The notes beneath the pieces were generated by a model. That model made no database searches. It saw only the letters and a program-made list of their open reading frames with translations, and had not been told where the DNA came from. From assembly GCA_031281255.1 (NCBI GenBank), contig JAITFR010000214.1, positions 7,996 through 71,995 of the forward strand: a stretch of 64,000 nt of DNA, given 5' to 3'. Origin of the DNA: Oscillospiraceae bacterium (GTDB taxonomy: Bacteria; Bacillota; Clostridia; Oscillospirales; Oscillospiraceae). This document shows, piece after piece, positions 27,251 through 57,633 of the stretch. Made by a program: the position numbers and the translations under genes. How positions within the stretch are numbered: the stretch's first letter is position 1; every line of letters starts with the position of its first letter.

Positions 27251-28861
27251 TCATCTTAATAAATATATATCATGTATTGTCACTCTGCCAAGATTAGTGA
27301 ATTCCGTAAGACCAGTATACTTCATTATTTCATTAAGATGTCCAGCAGCAATGTCTGCATCTACATTTTGCAAAAAAAGTATTATACCGTTATTTGATTG
27401 CACTTCTTCAAGTACTTCCACATTAAATATATCTTTATATGATATAAGTGCCATATTATCAAATAACATAAGGTGATATATAGTACGTGCTAAACAACCA
27501 CTATTAAATCCTACACTAACTACAGGCAGCTCTAGATGTTGGAGATATCCAGTAGAAGAAAAACCTGCGTGATAATGTTTATATAAATGTAATGGATGCG
27601 TATTTGTATATAATAATATTACGCATGGTAGAGTAATCAAAAAGAATAATGTTGCTTTATTTATACCAAATGACTTAACTGCATATATAATAGGTATTAT
27701 TGTTATCAAAGTAAAAAATGGTAATAGAAAAGAAAAATATCTAAAATCAATTTCCCATACAGTTCGGTTGATTGTAATAAAACAAAGAAATGTTGAAATA
27801 ATAAGAAGAATATACATTGCAGTTTCAGGTTTCTTTACGATTTCTGGAATCCTAGTTTTTTTATTTTTCGTGTTTAATATAAAAAGACATATAGCTGCAC
27901 CTGCTATAATAAATACAGTAATATAACTGACATTTGCAAATAAATGCAAATTAACTAAACTCATGGTTCTTGTTAACCGTTCGGAAATATTCATACTACC
28001 ATCTGTCAGATTATTCATTGCTACCTCACCATGACCAAGCCTTAACACCTGCATTGGAGATCTACCAAATAGTGAATAAATAAAAATAGATAATCCTGCT
28101 GCTAGCGAACATTTTATTACTGTGAAGAATTCCTTTTTTACAAGTAAGTATACCCCAAATGATAAAGATACAAAAAGTGCATATAATAAAAAATAATAAT
28201 GTGTTATTATACCTAAGCAAGCGGTAATAAGTATTGCTAAAATATACAGATTCTTTTTACTACTTACTACAAGTTTACATACAAAATATGTAAATAACAA
28301 GCAAAAGAACAATAGTAAATAATACATTCTAATATATACTACAAGACTAATAGCTGCACTGCTCATGCCCCATATTATTACAGGTATTAATGATAAATAT
28401 CTATCTTTTAAAAATAATATACCAAACTTATATATTATTATCAAAGACCCTAAGTACACTAAAATATTTAAGGAAATTGCTGGCCATATAGAAAATACGT
28501 CAGGAAATAATGAATTCACTGTATGGATTGCATAGAAATATAGAGGCGGATGAGAACCATTAACAGTTATTGAACGAGTATAGGTAAATGCATCCTCGCT
28601 TGATACTGTGATATGTGTTTTAAGATCTGATGCTTCTATCCAAGTATTGTAGATATTAGGATAAAAATATATCCTTCCTTTATCGCCCCCTTGGCTTTGC
28701 ATAAATGTAAAGATTTCATCAATATGAAACCCAGCCTTTTGTCCAGCCCAATAAAACATATATACCACTAGTATGACAATTATTAATACTAATAATATAA
28801 TATGCAGATTCTGCTTGATCTTATCCTTGGTAACTGTTCCCACTCTTGTTACTAGCTCCAA
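27251..28861 (-). CDS. GT-C (ArnT/PMT-like) polytopic membrane glycosyltransferase
   Basis: About 11-13 TM helices. An acidic first-loop motif GFHIDEIFTF follows TM1. It sits immediately downstream of its Und-P-sugar synthase partner's neighbour. The start is non-ATG (TTG or GTG) and abuts the upstream stop. Confidence 0.75.
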   Translation of the reverse strand: MELVTRVGTVTKDKIKQNLHIILLVLIIVILVVYMFYWAGQKAGFHIDEIFTFMQSQGGDKGRIYFYPNIYNTWIEASDLKTHITVSSEDAFTYTRSITVNGSHPPLYFYAIHTVNSLFPDVFSIWPAISLNILVYLGSLIIIYKFGILFLKDRYLSLIPVIIWGMSSAAISLVVYIRMYYLLLFFCLLFTYFVCKLVVSSKKNLYILAILITACLGIITHYYFLLYALFVSLSFGVYLLVKKEFFTVIKCSLAAGLSIFIYSLFGRSPMQVLRLGHGEVAMNNLTDGSMNISERLTRTMSLVNLHLFANVSYITVFIIAGAAICLFILNTKNKKTRIPEIVKKPETAMYILLIISTFLCFITINRTVWEIDFRYFSFLLPFFTLITIIPIIYAVKSFGINKATLFFLITLPCVILLYTNTHPLHLYKHYHAGFSSTGYLQHLELPVVSVGFNSGCLARTIYHLMLFDNMALISYKDIFNVEVLEEVQSNNGIILFLQNVDADIAAGHLNEIMKYTGLTEFTNLGRVTIHDIYLLR

Positions 28862-35156: not shown

Positions 35157-36209
35157 TTATTGCTTTCCAATATAATCATCCACTCTACTATCTCCACGTT
35201 TTTTTAGTATCTCTACTGCATCTTTTACTTTTTGTGTTTGGTCTTTATGACATATCAAAAGTGCATCGTCCATATCTACAACTACTAAATCTGAAACCCC
35301 TATAAGTGCTATTGCTTTATTTTTTTCAGAATACACTATGTTTTTTGCACTATTAAGCATTATTTCATCACCGAATTGTACATTGTCTGCTTCGTCACGT
35401 TTTGCGTGTTGTTTTTCACAAAATGTACCAAATGTACCAAAATCACTCCAACCGGCATCTAGTGGTACACAATACACATTGTCCATTTTTTCTATAAGTC
35501 CGTAATCTACTGATATTGATGGTGTTTTATCAAAGCTTTCTTCTATATCACTAGTTCTGAATGCTTCATAAACTTCAGGGTTGTAGTTCATTACAGCATC
35601 TTCAAATTGCTCTGATTGAAATACAAATATACCACTGTTCCATAGATAACCTTGTTCAACATAACGTATTGCTGTGTCATAGTCAGGTTTTTCTTTAAAC
35701 TCCAAAACCTCGAAACCACCTTGTAGAGGATTACCCGGTTTAATATATCCATACCCTGTTTCTGGTCTATCAGGTTTTATACCAAATGTTACAAATCCGC
35801 TACTAGCAAGGGTTTCTGCTGTTTTTACTGTATCAGCAAGAGCTTGAGGGTTGTCAACTATATGATCTGATGAAAAAACTGCACATATATCATCAGTTTT
35901 CTCTCGTATAGTCTGTACAGCGTACATTATCGCCGGTAGTGTGTTTTTTGCTTCAGGTTCTAATAAAATCTGTTCATAAGGTATAGATACATTCATCTCT
36001 TTAAGCTGTTCATTTACCAATTCAGAATAGTTCTCACTTGTCACTAAGTAAATATCATTTTGCTCACCTATAAGTAAGCACCTCGATATTGTTTCTTGAA
36101 ATACCGATTTTTTCATTCCTGAGAGTTTTATAAATTGCTTTGGATAATTTGTTCTGCTAAGAGGCCAAAGTCTTGTACCTGACCCTCCCGCCATAACTAT
36201 CAATTTCAT
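35157..36209 (-). CDS. manC: Mannose-1-phosphate guanylyltransferase (GDP-mannose pyrophosphorylase, no cupin/PMI domain)
   Basis: MKLIVMAGGSGTRLWPLSRTNYPKQF is the ManC/CpsB N-terminal signature. AGGAGGG SD lies 6 nt before the ATG. Confidence 0.9.
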   Translation of the reverse strand: MKLIVMAGGSGTRLWPLSRTNYPKQFIKLSGMKKSVFQETISRCLLIGEQNDIYLVTSENYSELVNEQLKEMNVSIPYEQILLEPEAKNTLPAIMYAVQTIREKTDDICAVFSSDHIVDNPQALADTVKTAETLASSGFVTFGIKPDRPETGYGYIKPGNPLQGGFEVLEFKEKPDYDTAIRYVEQGYLWNSGIFVFQSEQFEDAVMNYNPEVYEAFRTSDIEESFDKTPSISVDYGLIEKMDNVYCVPLDAGWSDFGTFGTFCEKQHAKRDEADNVQFGDEIMLNSAKNIVYSEKNKAIALIGVSDLVVVDMDDALLICHKDQTQKVKDAVEILKKRGDSRVDDYIGKQ

Positions 36210-36220
36210 ACTAATCCCTC

Positions 36221-36290
36221 CTACTCTCTACTCTCTACTCTCTACTCTCTACTCTCTACTCCCTACTCCCTACTCCCTACTCCCTACTCA
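36221..36290. repeat. Heptanucleotide tandem repeat, 10 copies (5x CTACTCT, 4x CTACTCC, 1x CTACTCA on the plus strand)
   Basis: Counted base by base. The repeat spans the stop codon of the 36277..38286 CDS (TAG at 36277-36279) and ends next to the manC SD. Confidence 0.95.
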
Positions 36291-38286
36291 ACAACCTATA
36301 CAGCTTCGGATGCCTATGTTTTAAGTTCTCAATTAATGAAAAACGCATCAGCGAAAATAGTTTATACTCGTTAAACCGTGAGTATAAATGGTTAAGAGTC
36401 AAAGAAAGCACATCTTTCTCAATTATTACCTCGTCTCTTTCAATTGTTAACTCGTGTTTTTCGTTTAATAAATTACCTTTTTCTACAATTAGCTCCTTTG
36501 TTTCGTTGTACAATCTCGTATTTTCTATTAAGTGCAACTCAATTTGATGGTTAAGATGCGAAATCTCAGCTTTTAATCCTGTCATACAAACATCTAAACG
36601 ATCATTAACTCCAGCTGATAATAGAATATCCATATGATAACGTTCATTTAGTTTTATCAAATCAACTTTTGTATTTAGTAACTCTGCAAAGAAACTCTCT
36701 AACTCTGTTGCTGCTCTATCCCATGTATCAATGAACTCTACACTAGCTAATGTAGTTGAAAAGTCTGTTTTATTTATTATATCACGTATATCATCAAAAT
36801 TATCATAAGTTATTATATATCTCTTAAAATCATAATAATGTTCCCTTAACTCTTTATTGAGGTCATTATTATTGACAATAATTATTTTATTTAACTTCAA
36901 GCATATAGTAATAGGTAATCCAAAACCTTCATATAAGCTAGGGAAGATCACAGCAGTGCAATTTGCATACAGATAACTTATAAAATCATCATCAAGAAAA
37001 CCACTTTGATATCCATAAATATTTGGTTTTATATAATCGTTTTCTCCCAAACCAATAACTATAAAGTTTTCTTGTGTATCTACAACAGCACTTATTGTTT
37101 CATTTAATGCTTTATGCTTATATGAGTTTCCAACAATTAAAAAATATTTATCAAAAGGTAAATCATACTCCATTTTTGGCTCATCTAACTTTGATGTTAG
37201 ATATATTCTTTTTTGCTTTAGCTTTTTCATATTATTTAAAATTGCAACAGATGAAAAATATGCTTTAAAATCATTTACTGCAAAATCACTTATAAATACA
37301 ATACCGTCACTAAGTAAAATACCTAACTCAATATCACCAATACCATCGACACTTACATGCTCGTCAATTCTTAATGCAATTATATCAAGTATTGATTGAA
37401 CAATTTTTAAGCAATGTTTATTTAGTGTAACTTGTTGTTCATAGAACATTAGTTGATTTGGTGAGAATCCAAGATGAAACTCACCATCTAATGTTTCAGG
37501 ATAAAGTACATTGATATATTTTTTTGAAAATTCAAAAAACTCATCCACTTCATGCGTTACATATAAATAAATATCATACTTATCAGAGAACAGTCTATAA
37601 AACGCATCATAATATGATCTTAAATATTCTGAAGTGCCATTATACTGTGGAGTTAAAGCAATACAATCAAACAATATTTTTTTCTTAGGATAATATTTTT
37701 CATCAATAAGTTTAAGAAACTCTACACAAGGGTTTTTATTATAAAGGCCAAAGCGTTCAGTTTTTTTATTCCAATAATGCTCATATCGCGATAAAAACAA
37801 TTCTTCATCAGCATTTGTTTCATCATTACTAAACTTATTATTGTCTCCAATATCATCTTTATATGAATACATTGCATGATAAACAGCTAGAGCAGAAAAA
37901 CCATACATGTTTATCCTGCAATAAAAATCTAATAGTGCCCAATGTAAACTGGTAAATGCCTCATCAAAAAAACCTAGCTTATCTATAACAGAACGTTTTA
38001 TAAGAACACAATCAACATTTACATTGATAGTAATTGTATATTCGGGTAAATACTTCCACGCTGTTTTTATAAGATTTTTATTGTTTTCTATTTCATAACC
38101 TACAGAGATTGCGTGCTTTTCTGCAGTTTTAAGACAGGATTTTAAACTATCCAAAGCACTCTCATGCAAAACTATGTCATCAGAGACAATTAGCACATCA
38201 GATTCAGGCTCAGCAAGAAATCTGCTCGTATACTCTTGAATAATAGTTTTTGTAGTTGTTAATTTGTTAATTGTAATCTTTAACAT
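36277..38286 (-). CDS. Multi-domain glycosyltransferase: truncated GT-A-like N-domain, GT4 (GT-B) domain, coiled coil and a conserved C-terminal tail
   Basis: FPSLYEGFGLPI (GT4 E-x7-E region). The N-terminal LIVSDDIVLHESAL resembles only the DxD half of a GT2 domain. A heptad-rich segment is followed by LTLNHLYSRFNEYKLFSLMRFSLIENLKHRHPKLYRLL. Confidence 0.75.
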   Translation of the reverse strand: MLKITINKLTTTKTIIQEYTSRFLAEPESDVLIVSDDIVLHESALDSLKSCLKTAEKHAISVGYEIENNKNLIKTAWKYLPEYTITINVNVDCVLIKRSVIDKLGFFDEAFTSLHWALLDFYCRINMYGFSALAVYHAMYSYKDDIGDNNKFSNDETNADEELFLSRYEHYWNKKTERFGLYNKNPCVEFLKLIDEKYYPKKKILFDCIALTPQYNGTSEYLRSYYDAFYRLFSDKYDIYLYVTHEVDEFFEFSKKYINVLYPETLDGEFHLGFSPNQLMFYEQQVTLNKHCLKIVQSILDIIALRIDEHVSVDGIGDIELGILLSDGIVFISDFAVNDFKAYFSSVAILNNMKKLKQKRIYLTSKLDEPKMEYDLPFDKYFLIVGNSYKHKALNETISAVVDTQENFIVIGLGENDYIKPNIYGYQSGFLDDDFISYLYANCTAVIFPSLYEGFGLPITICLKLNKIIIVNNNDLNKELREHYYDFKRYIITYDNFDDIRDIINKTDFSTTLASVEFIDTWDRAATELESFFAELLNTKVDLIKLNERYHMDILLSAGVNDRLDVCMTGLKAEISHLNHQIELHLIENTRLYNETKELIVEKGNLLNEKHELTIERDEVIIEKDVLSLTLNHLYSRFNEYKLFSLMRFSLIENLKHRHPKLYRLLSRE

Positions 38287-38310: not shown

Positions 38311-38366
38311 GAAAACATCTTATTCATACTTTTATTACTTTCTAACATTATCATCCACTTTACTCA
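38311..38366 (-). other. Duplication scar: a degenerate copy of the manC 3-prime end, the intergenic spacer and the first codons (MNKM) of the 32775..35147 gene
   Basis: Aligned by eye with 35131..35195. The first 20 nt differ at 1 position. After a 5-nt gap, about 31 of 40 positions match. The relic reads SKVDDNVRK-stop versus the manC end SRVDDYIGKQ-stop. Confidence 0.6.
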
Positions 38367-40379
38367 CTAACCCCTTCTCCCTTTTAACAACCTATACACC
38401 TTCGGGTGTCTATGTTTTATGTTCTCAATTATAGAAAAACGCAGCAGTGAAAATAATTTATAATCGTTAAACCGTGAATATAAATGGTTAAGAGTCAGTG
38501 AGGATGTATCAATCTCAGCTCGCATTTCATCAGAATATGTTTTATAATCCTCGATTTCATAGTTAAGCATACCTATTTTCGCTCTAAGTTCATCTACAAT
38601 ATATTCTAAATTGTGTCTATAGTCTTCGTATAGTGCGATTGAATTATCATTCAGCTCAATAGTATGCTCTAATGATTTAAACAATAACCATCTGCCGGCT
38701 ATTATATCATAATTTATCGGCTTTAACATTAACATACAAACAAACTTATTTAATTCAACTACAAATTTATCCCAACTCCACTCTATCGGAGTTATACTAT
38801 GTTTATTATTTAATATATCTTCTATTAGCGAGTTTATCTCATTATGTATTTTAAAAAGATACAGATTTTCTGAATTATTTTGCAAAATTTCCTTATGCTC
38901 GTGGTTTAACTCACAATCAAAAAGTAAAATTGGTTTATCTGCAAACAACGCTTCATATACCGGAAACCCAAACCCTTCATAGCAACTTGGAAATAACACC
39001 ATATCACAGTTGTTATATAATAGCGATATAAAACCATTCTCTAAACTCCCACTATCATATCCATAAACATTCGAATATAGTAACTTATCTCCACCATAAC
39101 CAATTATGATAAAATTATTATCATTATTTCGGATTTCATTAATTACCTCGTTTAGCATTTTGTGCTTTAACGCATTACCCATTACTAATATATATTTATC
39201 AAAAGGTAACTCTATATCAACAGGTTCTGTTCTATAAAGTTTTGGTGGATTTTTTATTTTAATAATCTCTATATCTTTTAAAACATACTCATCAATAAAA
39301 TATGCTAATAAATCATTTTTTGAAAAATCACTAACGCATACAATTCCATCAATTAATGAAAACAATAATCTAAAACCTTCATCCATCTCATCTATTTTGC
39401 ACCTTACATAATTGCATCTTAGCATGATAATATCATGTACAAAGACAATGATTTTCAAAGCACATCTATTCAAATAACATAAGTGTTTTTTATTAATATA
39501 ATGAAAACCAACAATTGCTATATCAAAGAGTTCTTCACTGGTTTCATCACTTATAGTTTTGTATCCTTGAGCAGAAATCAAAAAATACTCATCAGCATCA
39601 GGTGGTATAAAGACATATATGTCATATTCTTCAAAATACTTTTTTACAAAACTACTCATTAGTGATAAATTATGCTCATTTACGCCATTATACCGTGGCT
39701 GTACTTGAAATAAATCAATTAGTACTTTCTTTTTTCTTTTACTTGCTACAAGTAAGCCGGAAAAATGATCTACAGCACTAGTATCATATCTTTCATACAG
39801 CATTTCCAACTTATTTAAATATGGGTATTGCTTATTTAATAAATCTTCCTGCTTTTCATCAAAAATAGTATTGGTGTTTTTAATTTGTAAAACAGCATAA
39901 TTGCTTTGAATAGTCGAGTAACCATAATCACTAATAAACAAACAGAACTTTTTTAGTTGATAATAAATTGAATCATATCCGGTAAAATCACAAAGATGCC
40001 AAAACAAGTTATAAACTCTGCGTTTTATCATCACACATATTGTATCATTAAAATAAACACGATGATAAAGCGGAATGTTTTCAACATTTAAAATACTTTT
40101 AATATCACTTTTTGGTATTGATATTCCATGCTTCTCTGCCGCTTCTAAGGATTTGATTAGAGAAGTAATCGATTCGTTATCTAACTGCATATCACTATCC
40201 ACAAAAAGTAAATCATCTTTTGTATCAATCTGAGAGCATATCTCAAATATACGCTCTGTCAAATCTGGTTCAGATTGTAAAAGAGTATAAACTTTTTTTA
40301 TAGCTTTATGATGATGCCACATCTCTTCTATTTTATGCACATCATCATCTGCTTTAGTTATACAAAGAAGAATTAACAA
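38367..40379 (-). CDS. Paralog of 36277..38286: truncated GT-A-like N-domain, GT4 domain, coiled coil and conserved tail
   Basis: FPSCYEGFGFPVYEAL (GT4). N-terminal LLFVDSDMQLDNESI. The tail is LTLNHLYSRFNDYKLFSLLRFSIIENIKHRHPKVYRLL. The start codon is uncertain (TTG at 40379 overlaps the upstream gene). Confidence 0.75.
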   Translation of the reverse strand: MLILLCITKADDDVHKIEEMWHHHKAIKKVYTLLQSEPDLTERIFEICSQIDTKDDLLFVDSDMQLDNESITSLIKSLEAAEKHGISIPKSDIKSILNVENIPLYHRVYFNDTICVMIKRRVYNLFWHLCDFTGYDSIYYQLKKFCLFISDYGYSTIQSNYAVLQIKNTNTIFDEKQEDLLNKQYPYLNKLEMLYERYDTSAVDHFSGLLVASKRKKKVLIDLFQVQPRYNGVNEHNLSLMSSFVKKYFEEYDIYVFIPPDADEYFLISAQGYKTISDETSEELFDIAIVGFHYINKKHLCYLNRCALKIIVFVHDIIMLRCNYVRCKIDEMDEGFRLLFSLIDGIVCVSDFSKNDLLAYFIDEYVLKDIEIIKIKNPPKLYRTEPVDIELPFDKYILVMGNALKHKMLNEVINEIRNNDNNFIIIGYGGDKLLYSNVYGYDSGSLENGFISLLYNNCDMVLFPSCYEGFGFPVYEALFADKPILLFDCELNHEHKEILQNNSENLYLFKIHNEINSLIEDILNNKHSITPIEWSWDKFVVELNKFVCMLMLKPINYDIIAGRWLLFKSLEHTIELNDNSIALYEDYRHNLEYIVDELRAKIGMLNYEIEDYKTYSDEMRAEIDTSSLTLNHLYSRFNDYKLFSLLRFSIIENIKHRHPKVYRLLKGRRG

Positions 40380-42055
40380 ATCTTTTTTCTCCTTTTATAT
40401 ATAACTTTATAAATACCAAAACCTAATGCTAAAACAGCAATCCATGCAATAATAAACACAGGAAAATTATACCTGTCTATAAAGGATTGTGATACACTAT
40501 TGAGTAATTGATATCCTAAAGATGTTGTTGAACTAATAAAAGAAATAATAAAACTAACAGAGTCCTTTAATAATATCAACATTACAATCGAAGTTACCCA
40601 CACAAAAGGCAGCAGCAAAAAACCTAATGTAAACATAAAGTTTGCCGGTTTTTGTGTAACTTTAAAATACCCTGTAATAATAGGTCCTGCTGACTTTACT
40701 TGATCAAATGGTTCTGCAAGTTCTATCATTTCAGGGAAAAAACTATGAATAAATGAGGGTGTTGAAAAAACAGCATACCCAATCGCACCATTTTCATTAG
40801 CTCTTATCATACTGGGTTCTCGACTTATACTCCACGTTAAATAAGTATCTCCTCCATAAAAATTAATACTTGTTAAGTATGAGTCAGTTACACCGCGTAT
40901 TACTGATAATGGTTGCCTGGTAATATTTCTAAAGAACACTGATAATGCGTCGTTTAATGATAATTCACTGGTACACGTTACACCTTCGACAATATATTCA
41001 TCAATTAACTCACCATCTAAAGTATAAAATGAAACTCTCATATCTGAATCATTTGCAGCGCTATATTTTATGAAATCAGTTTGAGGTGTAAATATCCCAA
41101 TAAATAAACGCTCTGAGCGTCGCCCAACCATGTAGTAATTATCATCTGAGGCATCCGGCAATATTTGATTCCACACCGTTATACTTATTACTGTCACAAT
41201 TATTGAGTATATTAGCAACCTAACAGGACGGGTTATACGTTTTAATCCTTGTTTTTGTACAATCGACATAAAAAGAATTGCTAAAACTGCTCCAACATTA
41301 AACATTAAATAATTCTGCTTCAGAAAATACAGTATAGGAAACAATGATATTATCGTTACTAAACTGACACGATACTTCCAGTTTATGCGACTTAACTTCG
41401 AGTTTGAGTAATAAACAATTGAAAAATATACTAGCGCCGCCACTAGAAATGTTGCTAAGTGTTCAGTGAGCATTACATGATAATACCCAAAAAATAATGG
41501 ACATAATCCTACAAAAGCATATATTAGTATTCCGGTTGTTAGCTTCTTATTATTAGTATCCAGCATCAATACCTTATTAGCAATCAAGTAGTATAAAACC
41601 AACGTTGCAGCATAAACAACATATTGAACAATTAATACAGCATATGCATTATACCCAAAAATCGACGTTGTAAACCACAAGTACAATGGAAACGTAGGTC
41701 CTCTGACAACATCCCAATAATCCATTGGTACTTCTCCATTTATTATTGGCAGGTATGATAAGTAATGTGCTGAATCCCAAGTAATCACAATGTTATACCA
41801 AATAAACAATAAAAAAGAAAATACACCCAATGCAGGAAGAATAAAGTAAGGTTTATATACTTTTTCAAAGAATAGGGTTGTAATAATTACACCAATTGTA
41901 GCAGCAGTAAATAATGCCCAAAAAAACTTCCCATTTAACTCCACGTTTCGCCCCATCATTGTAATAACAGGAGAAAAATATACAAAAACAGCTGCTGCAA
42001 CATAAATAGCAGATATTGGTATAACTACAGATAATTTTAACTTTTTATTTTTCAT
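40373..42055 (-). CDS. Polytopic membrane protein with a large extracytoplasmic loop/domain (GT-C-like; uncharacterised family), paralog of 45394..47523
   Basis: Multiple TM helices. Conserved loop WDSAHYLSYLPIINGEVPMDYWDVVRGPTFPLYLW and shared C-terminus ...DRYNFPVFIIAWIAVLALGFGIYKVIYKRRKKI. Confidence 0.7.
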   Translation of the reverse strand: MKNKKLKLSVVIPISAIYVAAAVFVYFSPVITMMGRNVELNGKFFWALFTAATIGVIITTLFFEKVYKPYFILPALGVFSFLLFIWYNIVITWDSAHYLSYLPIINGEVPMDYWDVVRGPTFPLYLWFTTSIFGYNAYAVLIVQYVVYAATLVLYYLIANKVLMLDTNNKKLTTGILIYAFVGLCPLFFGYYHVMLTEHLATFLVAALVYFSIVYYSNSKLSRINWKYRVSLVTIISLFPILYFLKQNYLMFNVGAVLAILFMSIVQKQGLKRITRPVRLLIYSIIVTVISITVWNQILPDASDDNYYMVGRRSERLFIGIFTPQTDFIKYSAANDSDMRVSFYTLDGELIDEYIVEGVTCTSELSLNDALSVFFRNITRQPLSVIRGVTDSYLTSINFYGGDTYLTWSISREPSMIRANENGAIGYAVFSTPSFIHSFFPEMIELAEPFDQVKSAGPIITGYFKVTQKPANFMFTLGFLLLPFVWVTSIVMLILLKDSVSFIISFISSTTSLGYQLLNSVSQSFIDRYNFPVFIIAWIAVLALGFGIYKVIYKRRKKIC

Positions 42056-44467: not shown

Positions 44468-45397
44468 CTAACTCCTGCTCGCAACTATCTCCTGTACCAC
44501 TTTTACTGCGCCGTTTTTATTAACCTGCTCGGTCAAACGTTTAGATAATATTAATCTCTGTTTATAGTTACTCAAAAGTGCTGCAACTTTTTGTTTTAAA
44601 TTACTTAAATCCACATTATTCCAATCTCCAACACTTTCAATAAGATTATTTCGCGACATATACTCTGTAACAAAATTTTGATTGTCAGCTTGTTTTATTG
44701 TTATTGCTGGTAATCCAAGTGCTGCTACTTCATATATCATTGATCCGGACGATGTTACTGCAATATCGCATTTTTGCATTATCTCCACCATGGATTTTGG
44801 TGTTTTATGAACTTTCACTCTATCTTTTCCGTATTTTTCTGCAAAAAGTAACACTTCTTCATCATTTTTAGTGTATTTACCTAATACAACATTTAAATAA
44901 ACACCATCTATTTGACACAGAGTTTTAATAGTTCTTGGTGTCGTGTTGTGTAAATCAGTACCGCCAAAACAAACAAATATTGTATTTGCATTTTCTTTTA
45001 TAACTATTGGTTTTGCTTCTCTAAACTCTCTACGTAACAGGGCATACTCTCCACCAAGTAAAAGTTTTGGTGTTTTTGCTCCAAACTTAAACTTTAGCTC
45101 ATTCGCATACAAATTAGCATTTACTAACATATCACAACTATAAGTATACAACGCATTATCATCATAACACACCAGGGTGCGGTTAGGGGCATTTAGATTT
45201 TTAATATAATCATTACTGACTTTGTATGTATCAACGATTATTAAATCAAACCCGTTGTAATCAATATGTTCGTCCTCTTCTGTAAAAAACTCACATATAT
45301 AACCAAGATCAGTAAATACATCAGCTAATGCAGACATACGCACAAAATGCCCCGTGCCTGTTTCGCTCCCTATATCAATTCTAAACGCTATTTTCAA
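44468..45397 (-). CDS. pseG: UDP-2,4-diacetamido-2,4,6-trideoxy-beta-L-altropyranose hydrolase (PseG)
   Basis: MKIAFRIDIGSETGTGHFVRMSALA (GxGHxxR) and FVCFGGTDLHNTT blocks are typical of PseG/SpsG. The TTG start overlaps the upstream stop (TTGA), with an AAGGAGA SD. Confidence 0.8.
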   Translation of the reverse strand: MKIAFRIDIGSETGTGHFVRMSALADVFTDLGYICEFFTEEDEHIDYNGFDLIIVDTYKVSNDYIKNLNAPNRTLVCYDDNALYTYSCDMLVNANLYANELKFKFGAKTPKLLLGGEYALLRREFREAKPIVIKENANTIFVCFGGTDLHNTTPRTIKTLCQIDGVYLNVVLGKYTKNDEEVLLFAEKYGKDRVKVHKTPKSMVEIMQKCDIAVTSSGSMIYEVAALGLPAITIKQADNQNFVTEYMSRNNLIESVGDWNNVDLSNLKQKVAALLSNYKQRLILSKRLTEQVNKNGAVKVVQEIVASRS

Positions 45398-47523
45398 ATG
45401 GTTTTTCTCCTTTTAGAAAGAACTTTATAAATACCAACACCCAACGCAAATATTGCTATCCAGGTTGATATATATACAGGAAAACTATACCTGTCAAGTA
45501 ACGATTGTGAAATTGCATTTAGAAATCGATACCCAAATGATATTGAGGAACTTATGAAAGCAATAACGAATGCAGTTTCTTTCTTGAAGAAAAATAAAAA
45601 TGCAAAAGATCCTATCCATATAAAAGGTAACAGTAAAAATCCTATTGTAAACAAAATGTTTGAAAGTATGCTCATACGCCAGAAGAAATCTGTCACTGTA
45701 ACACCTGCTGTTTTCTTATGTACGAATGGATCGACAAAATGCTGTAAGCTAGGTGACACATGATAAACATTTGAATATTCTTCAGAATAGAAAGTGAAAC
45801 TGCCAAGTGTCATATTTTCATTTCCTCTTAGCATAGGAGATCTACTTCTATCAATTCTATAAACTACTCCATCAGCAGTAGATGCATGATACCAGTTTGA
45901 ACCTGTTAAATATGAATCAACAAACCCTCTAATTGTTAACATCGGTTGTCGTGTTATATTCTTAAAGAATATATTTATTGCATCTGGAACAGATAATTGA
46001 CTAATATTTTGTATACCATCTACTACATAATCATCAACCAGTTTCCCATTGATATCAAAAAAGGAAACTCGCATATCTGCATAGTCTGATGTAGTAAATT
46101 GAATAAAATCAGAAGTTGTTGGTACAAATATAAGTAGTAGCAAACGATTAGGTTGCCGTGCTAACACACTATAATCCTCACTATCATCAACATTTGGTAA
46201 GATATTGTTCCATATTGTTATACTTATAATAAGAGCAATAAGAGTGTACATAAATAAACGTAAAGCACGAAACACACTCCTAATACTACATTTTTGAATT
46301 AATACTATTAAAATAATTGATAGCACAACACAAAGAGACATCATAAGGTAGTTTTGTCTCAGAAAGTATAGCATTGGGCTTAATATAACAATAAATAAAA
46401 TAGATAATTTATAACTCCTATTGATTTCTTGACTGTCTTCTTTCTCATAGTACACTAATGCTAAATATATAATAACAGCTACTGCCAAAGATGCTATAAA
46501 CTCTGTTAGCATTACATGATAATATCCAAAAACCAGTGGATTAAGACCAATGATTATATAAATTAAAACACCGGTTGTAAGTTTTTTATTTATTGTATTT
46601 AGTGGTAAAAGTTTTTCAGCAATAAGATAGTATGTATATAATGTAGCAATATAAAGAAAATAATGAACTATTAACATAGAAGTTACAGGTTCTCCAAGAG
46701 ATTTGTTAATAATAAATAAAAATAATGGATATGTAAATCCTCTAACAGCATTCCAGTAATCCATTGATAAAGTGCCTTCAATTATTGGCACATATGATAG
46801 ATAGTGAGCAGTATCCCATGTTACTATTATTGAATAACTATAAAACAGTACGAATGAGAATACCCCAAGCAAAGGTAGAATATAGCGAGGTCTATAAAGC
46901 TTTTCAAAAAATACTGTAAATACAGAAACAATAATAATTAATAATACATATATAGTCCAGAAAGTAAAATTATAAAATTCATGTAAATTACCAATCAACC
47001 TAACATCAAATGCCATTGCATATAATAGTTCTCCGTTAACATATAACGGTTCAACATCAGCACCTTCAATTAATCTTAAAGCAACACAGTTGCCGGTTTC
47101 TGAATCTGGTGCATGAAGTTCCAAGTCGTATATCTCCCCGGGTACAAGAGATAGAGTTGATTCAAATGTGATGTTTAAACGCAAATTATCATGGATATCA
47201 CTAATATTAATAATACTTTTGCTAATAATTTCATCTTTTTTACTTAGTGTAGCATTAATATAACCTGTGTTCTCTCTATTGTTTGTTTCTACAAATATAC
47301 CTATATTCACAAGTCTTGACACAGGTGAAGCAAAGCTTTGTTTATACACTTTATCACTTGTTAGTTCAAGAGCTGAGGCATTTATTGTGTACACTCCATT
47401 AGTATTTAAATAGTATGATATTGCAGGTCTGGTGTTAGAAAAAATGATAACAGGTAGTATAACAATAATAGTAACGATTAAAATCATTATACTCAATATT
47501 ACTAATCTTTTTTTACTAATCAT
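45394..47523 (-). CDS. Polytopic membrane protein, paralog of 40373..42055, with an extra roughly 170-aa N-terminal extracytoplasmic domain
   Basis: Shares WDTAHYLSYVPIIEGTLSMDYWNAVRGFTYPLFLF and ...DRYSFPVYISTWIAIFALGVGIYKVLSKRRKTI with the paralog. A single N-terminal TM helix is followed by a soluble segment before the TM bundle. Confidence 0.7.
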   Translation of the reverse strand: MISKKRLVILSIMILIVTIIVILPVIIFSNTRPAISYYLNTNGVYTINASALELTSDKVYKQSFASPVSRLVNIGIFVETNNRENTGYINATLSKKDEIISKSIINISDIHDNLRLNITFESTLSLVPGEIYDLELHAPDSETGNCVALRLIEGADVEPLYVNGELLYAMAFDVRLIGNLHEFYNFTFWTIYVLLIIIVSVFTVFFEKLYRPRYILPLLGVFSFVLFYSYSIIVTWDTAHYLSYVPIIEGTLSMDYWNAVRGFTYPLFLFIINKSLGEPVTSMLIVHYFLYIATLYTYYLIAEKLLPLNTINKKLTTGVLIYIIIGLNPLVFGYYHVMLTEFIASLAVAVIIYLALVYYEKEDSQEINRSYKLSILFIVILSPMLYFLRQNYLMMSLCVVLSIILIVLIQKCSIRSVFRALRLFMYTLIALIISITIWNNILPNVDDSEDYSVLARQPNRLLLLIFVPTTSDFIQFTTSDYADMRVSFFDINGKLVDDYVVDGIQNISQLSVPDAINIFFKNITRQPMLTIRGFVDSYLTGSNWYHASTADGVVYRIDRSRSPMLRGNENMTLGSFTFYSEEYSNVYHVSPSLQHFVDPFVHKKTAGVTVTDFFWRMSILSNILFTIGFLLLPFIWIGSFAFLFFFKKETAFVIAFISSSISFGYRFLNAISQSLLDRYSFPVYISTWIAIFALGVGIYKVLSKRRKTI

Positions 47524-47547
47524 TCAAATATCACCTCTAAACTTTAA

Positions 47548-47952
47548 TCATCTGCTTTGGTTAATGTTTTCAGATATTTGTTTATTTGTAACATCATTAT
47601 TTTGTTCTAGCTCATTTATAGCAATATATTGTGTTAATTTCCGAAGCTTATCTGATAAGCTGGATACTACTAATGTTAAACTAATGCAAATACAAGTTAA
47701 GAAAGCAATACAAACTATAAACAGAGCATTTACTGGCACATCAATACCAAGTAATGTTGAAAGATTATGTAGCAATGTTGGGAAAATGCAAAACACTGCA
47801 ACTCCAACAATAGCAATTAACCAAACAAGGCAATACTTTAACTCAAGTTTTTGTCGTCGCAGTAATATTACAAAGAATACAAACATTATAGCTAAAATCG
47901 CTAACATTAACATACGTAATTCAAAAAACATAAAACTAATCTCCTTTATCAA
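47548..47952 (-). CDS. Small membrane protein (DUF2304-like) usually partnered with a GT2 enzyme
   Basis: 134 aa with 3-4 TM helices and the pattern RRQKLELKYCLVWL...FPTLL..LS.LLGI..P.NALF. It overlaps the upstream GT2 gene by 17 nt. Confidence 0.65.
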   Translation of the reverse strand: MIKEISFMFFELRMLMLAILAIMFVFFVILLRRQKLELKYCLVWLIAIVGVAVFCIFPTLLHNLSTLLGIDVPVNALFIVCIAFLTCICISLTLVVSSLSDKLRKLTQYIAINELEQNNDVTNKQISENINQSR

Positions 47953-48658
47953 AATCTATCCTTGGTTTAATTGTGCTGATTAAAATTCCTATAGATACTT
48001 TAAACATATAATAAATTGATTTCAGTGGTGAAATTGAGGACACTCCGCCTTGTCTTTCTCGCATTGACACAGGTATTTCAACCACTCGTAATTTGTTTCT
48101 CAGAGCCAGCATATTACTTTCAGGTTCGGGGAAATCCTTAGCATAATAACTGGTAAACAATTTTAATGTTTTTTTGTTTATTGCACGAAATCCGCTTGTA
48201 GCATCTGTGATTCTTTTTCCGCTTAAACAGTATATAAGCATCTTAAAGAATTGAATCCCAACTCTGCGCAAGGTAGATGATTGAAAACCTTCATTGTCGA
48301 TGAACCTTGAGCCAATAACAAGATCAGCTTCTGCCAGATCTATAGGTTTAACAATTGCTTCAATCCAAGATGGATCATGCTGTCCATCTCCATCCACCTG
48401 CACAGCAACATCATAATTATTTCGTAATGCATAGATATAACCGGTCTGAACAGCACCTCCGATTCCGAGATTCATAGGTAAATCTAAAAATGGTATGTTC
48501 TTACTTTGTAATAACTCTTTACACCCATCTGTACTACAGTCATTTACAATAATCACATCATAGGTCGTTTTCTCACGTATCTCATGATAAAGAGTTTCAA
48601 TATTTTCCAATTCATTATAACATGGAACGACAATAAGCACTTTCAATGCAGAGTCCAC
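47936..48658 (-). CDS. GT2 glycosyltransferase (Dpm1/polyprenyl-phosphate sugar synthase-like, no TM)
   Basis: LIVVPCYNELENI, IIVNDCSTDG and VQVDGDGQHDP motifs. A TTG at 48646 preceded by AGGTGG may be the true start. Confidence 0.85.
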   Translation of the reverse strand: MDSALKVLIVVPCYNELENIETLYHEIREKTTYDVIIVNDCSTDGCKELLQSKNIPFLDLPMNLGIGGAVQTGYIYALRNNYDVAVQVDGDGQHDPSWIEAIVKPIDLAEADLVIGSRFIDNEGFQSSTLRRVGIQFFKMLIYCLSGKRITDATSGFRAINKKTLKLFTSYYAKDFPEPESNMLALRNKLRVVEIPVSMRERQGGVSSISPLKSIYYMFKVSIGILISTIKPRIDFDKGD

Positions 48659-48731
48659 CTGTAATCAATTACTTAAAAGTTTCTATTAAACTTACACTTC
48701 GTTTTCAAGTAAAATTACTCATATATATGGA

Positions 48732-49592
48732 TTATTTTACTTTGTAATGGTTATATAAATCTTTATGTTTCCTGACCCAGTCTCTCATATCATTTATCTG
48801 TTCTTTATAAGGCTTTACAATAAAATCAAAGTCATCTCTGGTGTTTAACAATGTTTTATCAATAACATAATCATCGTATGGCTCAACTAGCACATCTGTT
48901 TTATTAAATATATCTTGAAGTAATAAAAGAAGATTGTGTTTATCTATATATTCATTTGGCACAAGGTGATACAAGCCTGACAAATCTTGAATAATCGCAG
49001 CATGAACAGCTCTTGCAAGCTCAATAGTTGTTACGCCATTCCACATTGCTCTTGTAAAACCATTTATTTTGTTTTTTTGATTCATAAACCAATTAAAAAG
49101 ACCTGCTGAGTTCTTTTTAAGATCAGGTCCAATAATTGACATGCGCAATGTTAAATCTTTATTATTATTTATTTCACCTAAAAACTTTGTACGTTCATAT
49201 ACTGTTTCACCGTCTGGAATATCAGACTCTATGTAGCTTCCTTTTTTTCCTGAAAATACACAATCAGTAGATAAATGAATTATTTTAACTGATTTATCTA
49301 TATATTTTCTTTCAAGAAACTTCGGAAGATAAGAGTTTAACAGTATTGCTCTATCCGGTCTTTCGTTAGATTCACCAATCAGAATCCCAATACAATTTAT
49401 TATCACATCCGGTTTAGCTAAATCCAAAGAGTTTGATAAACTTAATATATCTTCTGCATCAATTGATATCATTTTTCCATTTTTTTCTACACTTCGCGAC
49501 ATAGAAATCACATCATAACTACATTCATTTAAATAAGTAGCAAGCACATGACCTGCCATTCCTGTTCCACCCAATACAATTATTCGCTTCAT
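48732..49592 (-). CDS. RmlD-like NAD(P)-dependent sugar-nucleotide reductase (extended SDR)
   Basis: IIVLGGTGMAGHVL and LSTDCVFSGKKGSYIESD...YERTKFLGE match the RmlD substrate-binding family pattern. Confidence 0.75.
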   Translation of the reverse strand: MKRIIVLGGTGMAGHVLATYLNECSYDVISMSRSVEKNGKMISIDAEDILSLSNSLDLAKPDVIINCIGILIGESNERPDRAILLNSYLPKFLERKYIDKSVKIIHLSTDCVFSGKKGSYIESDIPDGETVYERTKFLGEINNNKDLTLRMSIIGPDLKKNSAGLFNWFMNQKNKINGFTRAMWNGVTTIELARAVHAAIIQDLSGLYHLVPNEYIDKHNLLLLLQDIFNKTDVLVEPYDDYVIDKTLLNTRDDFDFIVKPYKEQINDMRDWVRKHKDLYNHYKVK

Positions 49593-49605
49593 GTTTACTT
49601 CATCC

Positions 49606-51039
49606 TTAATGAAAAATCTCTTTGTTATAGAACTTTTTTGTTATATTATACCATCTAATCAATCCAATTAGTAGTATTATAGCAAAAACACTCGCAATAA
49701 TTAACCTAATCAACATCATATCCATTATTATAATTGACACAAATGTTACGCTGATAATAATTGCAGCAGGTATAAACAACTGATGTAATTTAATTGGAAA
49801 GTTTTTAACTACAAATTTAGAAAAAATAAAATGTACTAAAAGTAAACAAAAATACGATGCAACCGAAGATACTGCAGCTCCATAAGCTCCATAATGTGGG
49901 ATAAAAATAAAATTCAATCCTACATTAACACTTGCAGCTATAATAGTAGCAAGTGGTATATAAATAGTTTTTTTTGCGTATACTTCATGTGTTGCACAAA
50001 TTGTATAAAGAAATGTAAAAAAGCCTCCACTCATAACAAGAACCGAGTATGTGATGCCTGAATGATATTCCGGCACAGCAATAATTCTTATAACATCCGG
50101 TAATATTAATAATATTAAAATATAAACACAAAGTATTAACCTTATATAAGTATTAGTTACATCACAAATAGCTTTAGTTTCATTATTCTTTAGTCTATCA
50201 AAATACATAACTGTCCATGAATTATTTATCGCTACCCATAAACCTGTTGGTATTAATGATATACTAAATATATAACTATATACTCCCATTTCACCTTCAC
50301 CAAGCATTTGAAACAGCATATACTTATCAGTTCCAGCTATTAAAATACTAGATATAGAATGAAAAATAATTGGTATAGATATTGGTAAAAAATATTTAAT
50401 GTATTTTATGTTAAATCTACCTTTTGATTCTACTGTTGTTATGACAACGGCGATAGTTCCAATTATTATTGCTGACATAAAGAATCCATAAATATCACCA
50501 AGATAATTTTTAAAAACAAAAATAGTTAAGAGTAATGAAAGTATTAATCTTAACAATGGTATTGACGAACTCCAAAAAACAGCAGATACAGCTTTTTTTA
50601 ACACACGGTTTTTTTCAAGTCTTATCACAGAAAACTGTGACATTGCTGTTTGTAATAGAAATAATGCGGCTATGAATACAGGAAACCCAATAATATTTTC
50701 AAGTAAATTATAAGTTATTAAAACAATGCTCAATATTACCGTAGAAAATAATAAACTCACTATCGATAATGTAAATGAATATGATTTCATTTCCTTTTCA
50801 TTATACTCATTTAAAGCATTATTCATTGAGCTTGCACCTTGCAATCCCATAAATGACAAACATACATTAACCCACAATGAGTATAATGCCATCAGTTCAT
50901 AGTCATCAGGAGATAATATCCTTGCAAGAATTATTATTAGTAAAAAATTTGAACCTTGGTTTAATGCAACACCAACGGTATATATAAAAGAATTTTTTAA
51001 ATAAATATTTTTTTTAAGCATATTTAGCATATGTTTCAA
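49606..51039 (-). CDS. Wzx-like oligosaccharide flippase (MOP superfamily polysaccharide biosynthesis protein)
   Basis: 477 aa with about 12-14 TM helices and no soluble domains. The position is typical, next to GT genes. The stop overlaps the upstream gene. Confidence 0.8.
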   Translation of the reverse strand: MKHMLNMLKKNIYLKNSFIYTVGVALNQGSNFLLIIILARILSPDDYELMALYSLWVNVCLSFMGLQGASSMNNALNEYNEKEMKSYSFTLSIVSLLFSTVILSIVLITYNLLENIIGFPVFIAALFLLQTAMSQFSVIRLEKNRVLKKAVSAVFWSSSIPLLRLILSLLLTIFVFKNYLGDIYGFFMSAIIIGTIAVVITTVESKGRFNIKYIKYFLPISIPIIFHSISSILIAGTDKYMLFQMLGEGEMGVYSYIFSISLIPTGLWVAINNSWTVMYFDRLKNNETKAICDVTNTYIRLILCVYILILLILPDVIRIIAVPEYHSGITYSVLVMSGGFFTFLYTICATHEVYAKKTIYIPLATIIAASVNVGLNFIFIPHYGAYGAAVSSVASYFCLLLVHFIFSKFVVKNFPIKLHQLFIPAAIIISVTFVSIIIMDMMLIRLIIASVFAIILLIGLIRWYNITKKFYNKEIFH

Positions 51040-52283
51040 CCTTCTTCTCGAAACATAAAGTTTATCAGTTTTTTCAATTGTTCGTTGCGTTCGAAATGCT
51101 CATAATAGTATTTTTTCGCTCTCTCTCCCATAGCTATTCGCTCATCTTCTGTCAACATATAAATATCACGTATATTTTTACTTAATGTTTCAATACTATC
51201 TGAAGGTCCGCATAGACCAACATGATTATCATTTATCATCATTGCAGCATCTCCGTCCATCGCGCCTATGATTGGCTTTCCTGCTGCAAAGTATGATTGG
51301 ATTTTTGCAGGGATTCCAAAACTACCTAACTCAGATTTTTTTAATGCAACAATAAATGCATCAGCAATTGCATAATACTTTGGCATATCTGTAACCGGAT
51401 GATAACCCTCAAAGTGGAAGTTATTTTTTAACCCATTTTTCTCAACCATCTCTTCAACATCATTTCGGCTCATACCATCACCAACTATAACCCAGTGTAT
51501 GTTAGTTAGTCCTTCATTAAAACAAATCTTTGCCGCTTGTATCACAATATCAAACGACTGTGCGGGATTTATACTGCCTGTAAATACAATACAAAACTTA
51601 TTCTTGTATTTTTCTTGAATACTCTCGTCAAATAGTTTTTCCTCATGTAGTTTTTCACATGCTTGTGGTATATAAATTATCTTCGAAGAATCTATTTTGA
51701 CATCATTAATTAACATACTTAGCATACCTTCAAATACAGCTATAATACCATCAGCTTTTCTATAATGCCATCTTGATAATTTTGTTATCATATGCTTAAC
51801 AAAATTGCTTTTTATATTCATTACCGCAAACACACTAAATGGCCAATAATCCAGTATATATATTGTCAAAGGTATTTTTGTAAACGCTCTATAAACTATA
51901 GCAGGAAAACTCATAATAACAGGAGATAGTTGGTACATAAGAACTCTGTCATACTTTTTTCCTATAAATGGGAGATAAAACATACAAAAAAATGGCCAGG
52001 ATACAAAGTTTAGCAATATCCTAAACATACTGTTTTTTTTGCCACGTGGGATTTCCCAAACTCTACGTATGTTTATACCATTCCAATTTTCTTTTGTTCG
52101 CTTAAAAAAACCCCAGCTTTTATATACCTTACCATCAGGATAATTAGGAATACCGCAAATAACATCTACATCATATCCTTGCTCAACAAGTCCTCTACAT
52201 ACATCATTAACCCTAAACTCCTCAGGCCAAAAATGCTGAGAAAATACCAATATATGTTTTTTTTCTTTTTTTCTAAATTCCAT
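51036..52283 (-). CDS. GT4 glycosyltransferase (WcaI/WbuB-like)
   Basis: The N-terminus HILVFSQHFWPEEFRVNDVCRGLVEQGYDVDVICGIPNYPDG is characteristic of the WcaI/WbuB subgroup. It has a C-terminal GT-B fold region. Confidence 0.85.
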   Translation of the reverse strand: MEFRKKEKKHILVFSQHFWPEEFRVNDVCRGLVEQGYDVDVICGIPNYPDGKVYKSWGFFKRTKENWNGINIRRVWEIPRGKKNSMFRILLNFVSWPFFCMFYLPFIGKKYDRVLMYQLSPVIMSFPAIVYRAFTKIPLTIYILDYWPFSVFAVMNIKSNFVKHMITKLSRWHYRKADGIIAVFEGMLSMLINDVKIDSSKIIYIPQACEKLHEEKLFDESIQEKYKNKFCIVFTGSINPAQSFDIVIQAAKICFNEGLTNIHWVIVGDGMSRNDVEEMVEKNGLKNNFHFEGYHPVTDMPKYYAIADAFIVALKKSELGSFGIPAKIQSYFAAGKPIIGAMDGDAAMMINDNHVGLCGPSDSIETLSKNIRDIYMLTEDERIAMGERAKKYYYEHFERNEQLKKLINFMFREEG

Positions 52284-53397
52284 ATTTATTTATATACTCA
52301 TATCCGACCATTATATTCTCTTTAACATCACTAAATGAATTATTTGCAGTTGAGTCTATGCTAACTAACTTCCTAATCTTTAATTTAGGATTAAATGTGA
52401 GAATTTCTACAGAAAAATATGATGGTAAAATAACTATATTACTATATTCTGATAATAATATGGAATAATCTATTTTGTCTAACGGATGAGGTTTTAGTAT
52501 AATCATTTCAGCATCATATAGATAATCCTTAATTATTTGTTTGCTTAATTGGAAATAAGAATATTCGTTATTCCTACCATGAATTGTTGTTGTTAAGAAC
52601 ATATCAAAAACAACATCATCATAAAACTTTAAATTATATGCGGTTGCATAGATACTGAAAATTTGTTCTCTTTGTTCATGACTTAGATTATTAACCAGAT
52701 TATCAACCGGAATTACTCTTATTTCTTTTCCTTTTGTCTCAACTACAAGGTCTTTATCACTACTTACTTCTATAGCTCTTATATAACGACATGATCCACG
52801 AATACCATATATTATGCGCATCTTTACAAGAACATTTAATAAATTTGTTATTTTGGGATACTTACCACTTAATGCATTTTTTGCATGTTCAACATAAACA
52901 AGATTATTCAGTTTTTTTCTATATAAATAGAAATTAACTATTGATGTACAATCAGTTATATAAATCTCATCATAATCACACAGGTTTATACCTTTAGGTA
53001 ATTTCACATATTTTGCTCGGTACTGTGATTTAATATACGTTATAAACCCTTTTACCATCTTATAAATACTTACTATAGTTAATCCAATATCAGATACTTT
53101 CTTTATCGAAAATGTACCTTGAGTCTTTAATACATGAGTAAAAGTGTCATGTTTTTGCTCATCGTAATAATATGAGTTCCGAAATATACCACTTTTTGAT
53201 ATTTCCTCAAACATTTCTTTCATACCTTCAGAATTGTTAGTAAGTAATATATCATTCTCATCATTAGAGTTTATAACTTTTAGTATTGTTCTATATAAAT
53301 TATATGGTTTCTCACATATATGCAAATATCTCATATTTATCTCTTGTTTCTTATTATCTGCCTTTAAAGCGGCCAAAACATACCTTTTGACACCCAC
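52273..53397 (-). CDS. Hypothetical protein with GT52-like (bacterial sialyltransferase-like) layout; candidate nonulosonic acid transferase
   Basis: YLHICEKPYNLYRTILKV resembles the GT52 N-terminal block. ILKPHPLDK supplies the sialyltransferase HP motif. At the position of the D/E-D/E-G motif the sequence reads VYVEHAKN. The start is ambiguous (GTG at 53397 or ATG at 53334). Confidence 0.5.
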   Translation of the reverse strand: MGVKRYVLAALKADNKKQEINMRYLHICEKPYNLYRTILKVINSNDENDILLTNNSEGMKEMFEEISKSGIFRNSYYYDEQKHDTFTHVLKTQGTFSIKKVSDIGLTIVSIYKMVKGFITYIKSQYRAKYVKLPKGINLCDYDEIYITDCTSIVNFYLYRKKLNNLVYVEHAKNALSGKYPKITNLLNVLVKMRIIYGIRGSCRYIRAIEVSSDKDLVVETKGKEIRVIPVDNLVNNLSHEQREQIFSIYATAYNLKFYDDVVFDMFLTTTIHGRNNEYSYFQLSKQIIKDYLYDAEMIILKPHPLDKIDYSILLSEYSNIVILPSYFSVEILTFNPKLKIRKLVSIDSTANNSFSDVKENIMVGYEYINKYGI

Positions 53398-53424
53398 TTT
53401 TGGCCCACTATATAGCTTTACCCA

Positions 53425-54576: not shown

Positions 54577-55128
54577 TTATTTAACCGCTCCAAAAATCAA
54601 ATTGTCTTGCCATTTATCATTTTCATTGATGCGTAGTTGTTTTCTTTGTCTACCTTCAAGTATAAACCCTGCTTTTTCCAAAGCCTTTTTACTGCCAACA
54701 TTCTCTTCAAATAAACCCGCTTGAACACGGTGAAGTCCTAATACATCAAATGCATAATCTTTTACCAATTTAATAGCTTCTGTAGCTATTCCTTTACCCC
54801 AATAGTTGCAATCACCTATGAAATAACTAACATCAGCGTAATTGTAGTGCGGATGAATAGGTCCAAGTTTTATATTTCCAATATGCGTGTTATTATCGCA
54901 ATAAATAATCGCAAATAAAATTGAATGATCACTTTTATGTATCTCACTTACAAAACTGATTATTTTCTCGAGTGTTTGCTCTGTCCAACGTGTTTCTAAG
55001 TATTTATTTACGTTTGGGTCATTTAACCATGATAAATATATAGTATTACAATCGTTTTCTCTGCATTCACGTAAAATAACTGTCTCCCCCTCAAGAACCA
55101 CATTTTTATCAATCACATTTAACCTCAC
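54577..55128 (-). CDS. GNAT family N-acetyltransferase (RimJ/RimL-like)
   Basis: WGKGIATEAIKLVKDYAF..LGLHRV and KALEKAGF blocks are typical of the Acetyltransf_3 family. Confidence 0.85.
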   Translation of the reverse strand: MRLNVIDKNVVLEGETVILRECRENDCNTIYLSWLNDPNVNKYLETRWTEQTLEKIISFVSEIHKSDHSILFAIIYCDNNTHIGNIKLGPIHPHYNYADVSYFIGDCNYWGKGIATEAIKLVKDYAFDVLGLHRVQAGLFEENVGSKKALEKAGFILEGRQRKQLRINENDKWQDNLIFGAVK

Positions 55129-55129
55129 A

Positions 55130-56263: not shown

Positions 56264-56294
56264 TTTTCTATATTCCTCTATTTTTTATCACCAT

Positions 56295-57611: not shown

Positions 57612-57633
57612 TTTGACCTTTTCATTTATATTG

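Follow-up and report, generated by a model that had tools for sequence, protein, structure and literature searches.

A G-rich heptanucleotide array in front of manC that may have grown in place from a glycosyltransferase gene tail in an Oscillospiraceae bacterium

The window, by which we mean the whole 64-kb stretch of DNA analysed here, is one glycan island. Its proteins belong to a single metagenome-assembled genome (MAG) of an uncultured, gut-type Oscillospiraceae bacterium (MDR2591004/5, on a 78,494-nt contig, run SRR14710903) with a GC content of about 30%. A literature search with the run and sample identifiers returned no paper naming them. The pseudaminic-acid set PseB, C, F, G, H and I is encoded on the minus strand at 44468-62559, and a second nonulosonic-acid module, consisting of a NeuB-family synthase, a HAD phosphatase and a CMP-transferase, lies on the plus strand at 9481-11476. 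The island also holds more than 12 glycosyltransferases, several methyltransferases and an ABC exporter. Three minus-strand ORFs, at 40373-42055 (560 aa), 45394-47523 (709 aa) and 27251-28861 (536 aa), gave no Pfam/NCBIfam match.

The junction studied here joins manC, which encodes mannose-1-phosphate guanylyltransferase, to the glycosyltransferase (GT) gene upstream of it, termed paralog B (Table 1). A second GT4 gene, paralog A, stands just upstream of paralog B, and the C-termini of the two proteins are nearly identical (...LTLNHLYSRFN(D/E)YKLFSL...HRHPK(L/V)YRLL). GTs of this family are common in Oscillospiraceae MAGs and occur in one Treponema as well. ManC, both here and in the sister MAG described below, is a short 350-aa form that lacks the mannose-6-phosphate isomerase/cupin (PMI) domain; that domain is present in most relatives of 55-66% identity, which are about 457 aa long.

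Between position ~23 kb and the window end, 29 of the 30 ORFs of at least 150 aa are encoded on the minus strand and are separated by short gaps, the sole plus-strand exception being the ORF at 47432..47983. A search of the minus strand between 34.5 and 39 kb found no terminator-like site. The co-directional genes and the lack of such a site make it likely that the junction is transcribed as part of a polycistronic mRNA. Among sigma-70-like sites in the region, the one at 36422-36450 on the minus strand matches best (TTAACA, 17 nt, AATAAT; 10/12). It lies within the 3' end of the GT gene, some 130 nt upstream of the repeat array, and overlaps a coding-sequence tandem repeat of 21 nt (36413-36462). 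If this site were active, the array would be part of the manC 5' leader.

Table 1. Features at the GT-manC junction, in window coordinates.
Feature	Position	Strand	Remarks
manC, mannose-1-phosphate guanylyltransferase, 350 aa	35157..36209	-	NTP_transferase and ManC beta-helix domain
manC Shine-Dalgarno AGGAGGG	36216..36222	-	-10.7 kcal/mol; fused to last repeat unit
Heptanucleotide tandem array	36221..36290	-	TG(AGTAGGG)4(AGTAGAG)5AGTAG; Tandem Repeats Finder
CTACTCT, five copies	36221-36255	+	
CTACTCC, four copies	36256-36283	+	
CTACTCA, one copy	36284-36290	+	
GAG-type sub-array, five AGTAGAG	36221..36255	-	Not SD-like, not G4-capable, no predicted canonical structure
GGG-type sub-array, four AGTAGGG	36256..36283	-	TAG in each unit; -7.4 kcal/mol with anti-SD
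Canonical G4 motif GGG(AGTA GGG)3, GGGAGTAGGGAGTAGGGAGTAGGG	36261..36284	-	Motif scan and ViennaRNA gquad
TAG stop, upstream GT gene	36277..36279	-	Within second repeat unit
GT4-type glycosyltransferase, paralog B, 669 aa	36277..38286	-	Pfam Glycos_transf_1; 3' end enters array
Proto-repeat AAAAGGGAGAAGGGGTTAGTGAGTAAAG in paralog A tail	38358..38385	-	Position homologous to array
GT4 glycosyltransferase, paralog A	38367..40379	-	Tandem paralog just upstream of paralog B

An earlier reading of this DNA, made from the sequence without searches (the sequence-only reading), had described a ten-copy heptamer repeat between the two genes, and direct reading of the plus strand agrees with its composition of 5x CTACTCT, 4x CTACTCC and 1x CTACTCA to the base. 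On the minus strand the run through the array is TATAGGTTGTTG(AGTAGGG)4(AGTAGAG)5AGTAGGAGGGATTAGTATG, so that two pure sub-arrays, one of AGTAGGG and one of AGTAGAG units, follow each other. Tandem Repeats Finder reports a period of 7, 9.9 copies and 98% matches with a score of 110, and the runner-up tandem array in the window scores 60. The window contains 15 CTACTCY heptamers, nine of them inside the array, and none of the shuffles reached 15. Together the repeat score and the heptamer counts show that the array is real and beyond chance.

The array overlaps the end of the GT gene. The GT frame closes with TTG TTG AGT AGG GAG TAG, in which the residues SRE and the stop come from the first two repeat units, giving the C-terminus ...YRLLSRE*. 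The stop-to-start spacer between GT and manC is 67 nt long, and 56 nt of these are repeat. Since every unit carries TAG, translation stops within the array whichever frame is used. Furthermore, AGT AGG GAG TAG and AGT AGA GAG TAG both translate as SRE*, so neither protein is altered by a change in copy number. Two claims of the sequence-only reading are thereby borne out: the GT stop lies inside the repeat, and copy-number change frameshifts neither protein. The GT ending is SRE* at any copy number.

The same reading had noted that the last unit runs into the manC Shine-Dalgarno (SD) sequence AGGAGGG, which is correct, although the SD sits one base off the position it implied. The GGAGG core of this SD is 7 nt from the ATG at 36209. 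Its pairing energy ranks second among 51 ORFs, which are those of 150 aa or more in the window, each taken with its best upstream anti-SD pairing (median -5.5 kcal/mol); these energies use the canonical CCUCC core, which may differ from the 16S of this MAG. On the same scale each AGTAGGG unit beats the window median and is among the top ~1.6% of 9-mers (-6 kcal/mol or stronger), whereas each AGTAGAG unit forms an anti-SD duplex weaker than -4 kcal/mol. The proposal that every unit is SD-like thus stands for the four GGG units and fails for the five GAG units. The array contains no ATG, GTG or TTG, and only the terminal AGGAGGG has a start codon 7 nt away. The AGTAGGG units are therefore predicted to be SD-strength decoys without a start codon. 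An on/off effect of the array on manC is unlikely, because manC has a strong SD of its own downstream of the array, at a distance that does not change.

A search for the pattern (G3+N1-7)3G3+ on the plus and minus strands of the window (128 kb in all) gave a single match, the G-quadruplex (G4) motif of Table 1. The exact G3N4 consensus that had been proposed at this position is thus present and unique in the window. The motif is not an independent observation, because any four units with GGG yield one. A check with a G4 predictor, which had been suggested along with the motif, also went in its favour: in the ViennaRNA quadruplex model GGG(AGUAGGG)3 has -8.36 kcal/mol and is in the minimum free energy structure (MFE) in each of three contexts. 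With canonical pairs only, the MFE is 0.0 kcal/mol both for the 86-nt spacer sequence and for the array alone, and a 251-nt context folds no better than its dinucleotide shuffles (z = +0.71). No inverted CTACTC array was found nearby on the same strand. We also considered known RNA families; no Rfam model matched anywhere in the window at gathering score, and within 35900-36700 none matched even at E <= 1.

The origin of the array can be approached through paralog A. The C-terminal consensus of the GT family is ...RHPxLFxxLKG followed by a few basic residues. Paralog A ends in the family-typical way with YRLLKGRRG*, coded by TTGTTAAAAGGGAGAAGGGGTTAG and then TGAGTA. In it KGRRG* is coded by AAAGGGAGAAGGGGTTAG, while the SRE* of the array-side GT is coded by the array. 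When 23-mers from both strands of the window (128 kb) were compared with (AGTAGGG)n in any phase, the sole site outside the array reaching 17/23 or more was 38385-38358, in the paralog A tail. The position of this proto-repeat is exactly homologous to that of the array, after the conserved ...TATAGGTTGTT. This correspondence points to an ancestral GT tail that probably already had about two imperfect units, and likewise to an array that was probably born in place, by slippage from the gene tail. Two pure sub-arrays imply that one G was changed to A and that expansion took place at least twice. That the GAG half is neither SD-like nor G4-capable fits slippage rather than selection for G tracts. 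We also considered a GT duplication that carried the manC start with it and rejected it: the region after the paralog A stop aligned locally to the region after the array with a score of 16, where shuffles averaged 15.3 (p = 0.41). The homology left standing between the paralog tails is roughly 25 nt.

Closest to this MAG is a sister MAG that comes from the same sample (JGI 3300042608, contig Ga0466721_382749); its ManC is 80% and its GT 56% identical to those studied here. The sister MAG keeps the GT-manC order with a 61-nt non-repetitive spacer ending in AAAGGAAGTTAGCAATG, and 12 kb of its sequence hold no heptamer array, against one in our 64-kb window. The sister junction without a repeat indicates that the array is a recent, lineage-specific gain, and it leaves no conservation that would argue for a function. 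At a wider range, in a collection of about 15 billion proteins clustered at 90% identity, those of the MAG are singletons. An exact look-up returned no match for ManC and, for the GT, only a Logan contig of SRR14710903. A scan of ManC against GTDB representative genomes gave a best identity of 54%, and none of these genomes had the repeat upstream.

Arrays of the same unit are found elsewhere. A metagenome scan for (AGTAGRG)3 recovered at least 120 unrelated contigs, and the source sample was not among the matches listed. Both (AGTAGGG)n and (AGTAGAG)n are widespread among them, in contigs with GC contents of 32-70%. Contigs L048, L054, L096, L097, L130, L152, L160 and others carry such arrays, and the listed arrays often adjoin an inverted (CCCTACT)n, with which a hairpin is possible, or mix with other NNNNGGG heptamers. 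Two sets of homologous low-GC loci allow a comparison of length: L055, L113, L121 and L166 have 4, 4, 3 and 4 AGTAGGG units, and L069 and L164 have 3 and 6. As unit counts differ at homologous loci, AGTAGGG arrays are length-polymorphic between related genomes. Four is the commonest number of GGG-N4 tracts among the matches listed, although the search threshold biases that set. ORF orientation around the listed arrays is biased by construction, with a TAG in each unit and a stop-free complementary strand.

An independent assembly of the same run bears on the copy number. Logan contig SRR14710903_11983 (L046) reproduces the GT 3' end and four AGTAGGG units; the AGTAGAG half is present in the MAG assembly only. 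The Logan contig, built on a k=31 de Bruijn graph, ends at ...GTTGTTG(AGTAGGG)4A. In simulations of that graph, the unitig extends 29 nt further, into the GAG units, when the window sequence is the only input; a three-unit allele ends it elsewhere; and the observed end results only if the reads also hold at least five consecutive AGTAGGG units. The other Logan break, at 35639 in manC, validates the logic of this argument, since it lies in a stretch of 35 nt (35610-35644; L168) that the sister MAG shares letter for letter, although the ManC proteins are only 80% identical. Both Logan contigs break at this stretch. The extra k-mers could stem from a longer allele, or equally from a foreign (AGTAGGG)n array or from stutter, which makes the hint at length variation a weak one.

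Taking these results together, we lean towards the view that the array is a lineage-specific, G-rich heptamer microsatellite that grew by slippage from the GT tail and now forms an unstructured intercistronic spacer with, at most, a graded effect on manC. The starting material would have been a short, purine-rich proto-repeat in the GT 3' tail that originally coded for ...LLKG(RRG)*. In the paralog B tail the units would have expanded, replacing KG... with an ending in SRE*. The array is presumably transcribed within one long polycistronic mRNA of the glycan operon. There it would end GT translation in any frame, leaving the GT C-terminus as ...SRE. At and past the GT stop, ribosomes would meet four SD-strength motifs without a start codon and then the strong manC SD. 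Slippage that changes the copy number would shift the stop-to-start distance and the numbers of SD-like motifs and G tracts, with four tracts needed for a G4. The expected result would be at most a graded shift in manC translation and no on/off switch. The array may be nearly neutral. Several points run counter to this view. Genuine length variation, and with it contingency behaviour, could lie behind the Logan break. The 67-nt spacer is close in length to the 61 nt of the sister MAG, as selection on spacing might produce. The number of GGG units, exactly four, is the minimum for a G4, and selection for a quadruplex could be the cause. Finally, a surface-glycan island is a typical setting of contingency loci.

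The last of these points leads to the alternative that survives best, although we think it rather unlikely: a contingency rheostat, the kind of control that the sequence-only reading had suggested, in which frequent slippage would let decoy SDs, spacing and G4 set the level of ManC, and perhaps of the GTs downstream, and so diversify the glycan. In its favour, the array is a simple sequence repeat (SSR) within a surface-glycan island and its GGG units are of SD strength, and precedents exist in the (ATCTTTC)n repeats of hmw (PMC12721329) and in the AGAT repeats of uspA2, as cited in PMC4679880. The k=31 end point argues in the same direction, given that it was reproduced only with at least five consecutive AGTAGGG units in the reads and that the break logic held at the mid-manC stretch common to the sister MAG; the extra k-mers, however, may derive from another genome in the sample or from sequencing stutter. 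Each sub-array has just 4-5 pure units, the manC SD and ATG lie downstream of the array where copy number does not affect them, and the only close relative has no array. No stable hairpin of the hmw kind is predicted for the array, given the 0.0 kcal/mol of the array itself and the z of +0.71 of its context.

It is more doubtful still that the G4 is functional, in which case the four GGG tracts would fold in the mRNA or, during transcription, in the non-template DNA and act before manC as a barrier to ribosome or RNA polymerase, or as an enhancer. The motif is the sole one in 128 kb of strand sequence of an about 30% GC genome, its predicted -8.4 kcal/mol places it in the MFE in all three contexts, and its four tracts equal the four-unit preference of a described repeat class (PMC4692102) as well as the peak of GGG-N4 tract number among the metagenome matches listed, a set biased by the search threshold. 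RNA G4s in 5' UTRs also raise translation in E. coli (PMC11087576). Against this, any four such repeat units produce the motif automatically, and Rehm et al. found no regulatory role for their class (PMC4692102). Its position also speaks against such a role: it is at least 39 nt upstream of the manC SD, behind the non-G4 GAG units, and because it overlaps the GT stop each terminating ribosome would be expected to cover most of it and to unfold it.

About as improbable is a tunable intercistronic device that would combine these elements. The number of AGTAGGG units would set both the G4, from four units on, and the SD decoys that hold ribosomes after they leave the GT, and would so set the supply of GDP-mannose heritably and reversibly. 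If this were true, the mannose content of a surface glycan containing pseudaminic acid would be set reversibly across the population. More generally, if the array does tune manC, repeat-driven graded control would no longer be confined to a few Gram-negative pathogens but would include an uncultured commensal Firmicute, the control would act between two cistrons and not in a promoter or coding region, and the G4-type heptameric repeat class would have a function.

A role as a platform for proteins is very improbable. It supposes that a CsrA-type regulator on A-N-GGA, or an S1- or Csp-type protein on the purine-rich strand, is tied to manC translation. All four GGG units contain AGGGA, which we take to be a short match to the A-N-GGA motif bound by CsrA-type regulators, and the SD adds two more GGA. 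The array is predicted to be single-stranded, and binding of S1, Csp or CsrA has been suggested for heptamer arrays that lie directly before start codons (PMC4679880). Yet no such regulator is encoded within the 64-kb window, the A-N-GGA match is short, and the array is missing at the sister locus. Equally remote is an artefact of short-read metagenome assembly, in copy number or in the whole array, because, even though the k=31 Logan assembly cannot cross the array and the AGTAGAG half is in one assembly only, Logan independently gives the GT end with four AGTAGGG units, and the pure tracts of 34 and 41 nt are below an assumed large k and 150-nt reads, which should resolve the count.

Returning to a microsatellite that would have grown from the GT tail, its main value at present is as a clean example of the birth of a repeat, with a two-unit tail in paralog A and ten units next door. 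The expansion in paralog B overwrote the last residues of the protein and filled the spacer.

Among known systems, the array can be compared with the (ATCTTTC)n repeat in the 5' UTR of Haemophilus influenzae hmw1A/hmw2A, a graded rheostat that works through a repeat hairpin and RNase III (PMC12721329). Both are heptameric SSRs that are transcribed (here presumably so) upstream of a surface-related gene and cause no frameshift. In hmw, at least 11 units are needed to form, together with a G-rich arm, a long hairpin that RNase III cuts, whereas no such pairing is predicted here, and the hmw repeat lies in a primary 5' UTR while our array is intercistronic.

Cyanobacterial STRR heptamers are tandem heptamers comparable to the TAACTGA repeats. 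The latter, a looser analogue of our array, are heptamer direct repeats found upstream of start codons in Beggiatoaceae, cyanobacteria and Bacteroidetes (PMC4679880). Like the array, both are tandem heptamers a few nt upstream of a start, a role in translation or protein binding has been proposed, and assemblies often break inside the repeats. They differ in being dispersed, with many per genome, and in often replacing the canonical ribosome-binding site; here a single array is followed by a strong canonical SD.

The nearest likeness is to the G-rich heptameric SSRs described by Rehm et al. in 2015, with GGGAATC in Xanthomonas and GGGGA(C/T)T in Nostoc (PMC4692102). These show a marked preference for four units, are mostly transcribed, differ in length between close relatives, and lie between co-oriented ORFs on the coding strand, overlapping the stop or at most 50 bp from it; they form G4s in vitro, and the authors could assign them no regulatory role (PMC4692102). 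The present array shares the 7-nt unit with a GGG tract (four AGTAGGG), has exactly four G tracts, the preferred number of the class, and overlaps the GT stop between two minus-strand neighbours; its transcription is presumed, and same-unit arrays elsewhere differ in length between related genomes. It differs in its unit (GGGAGTA) and in its host, a low-GC Bacillota MAG, as well as in being a hybrid with a non-G4 AGTAGAG sub-array and in being fused to a real SD. It also bears signs of in-place birth from a gene tail, and it is the single array in 64 kb, whereas the class is abundant genome-wide. Judged by its unit, its tracts and its placement, all read from the DNA, the array is a further case of the described G4-capable, G-rich heptameric repeats.
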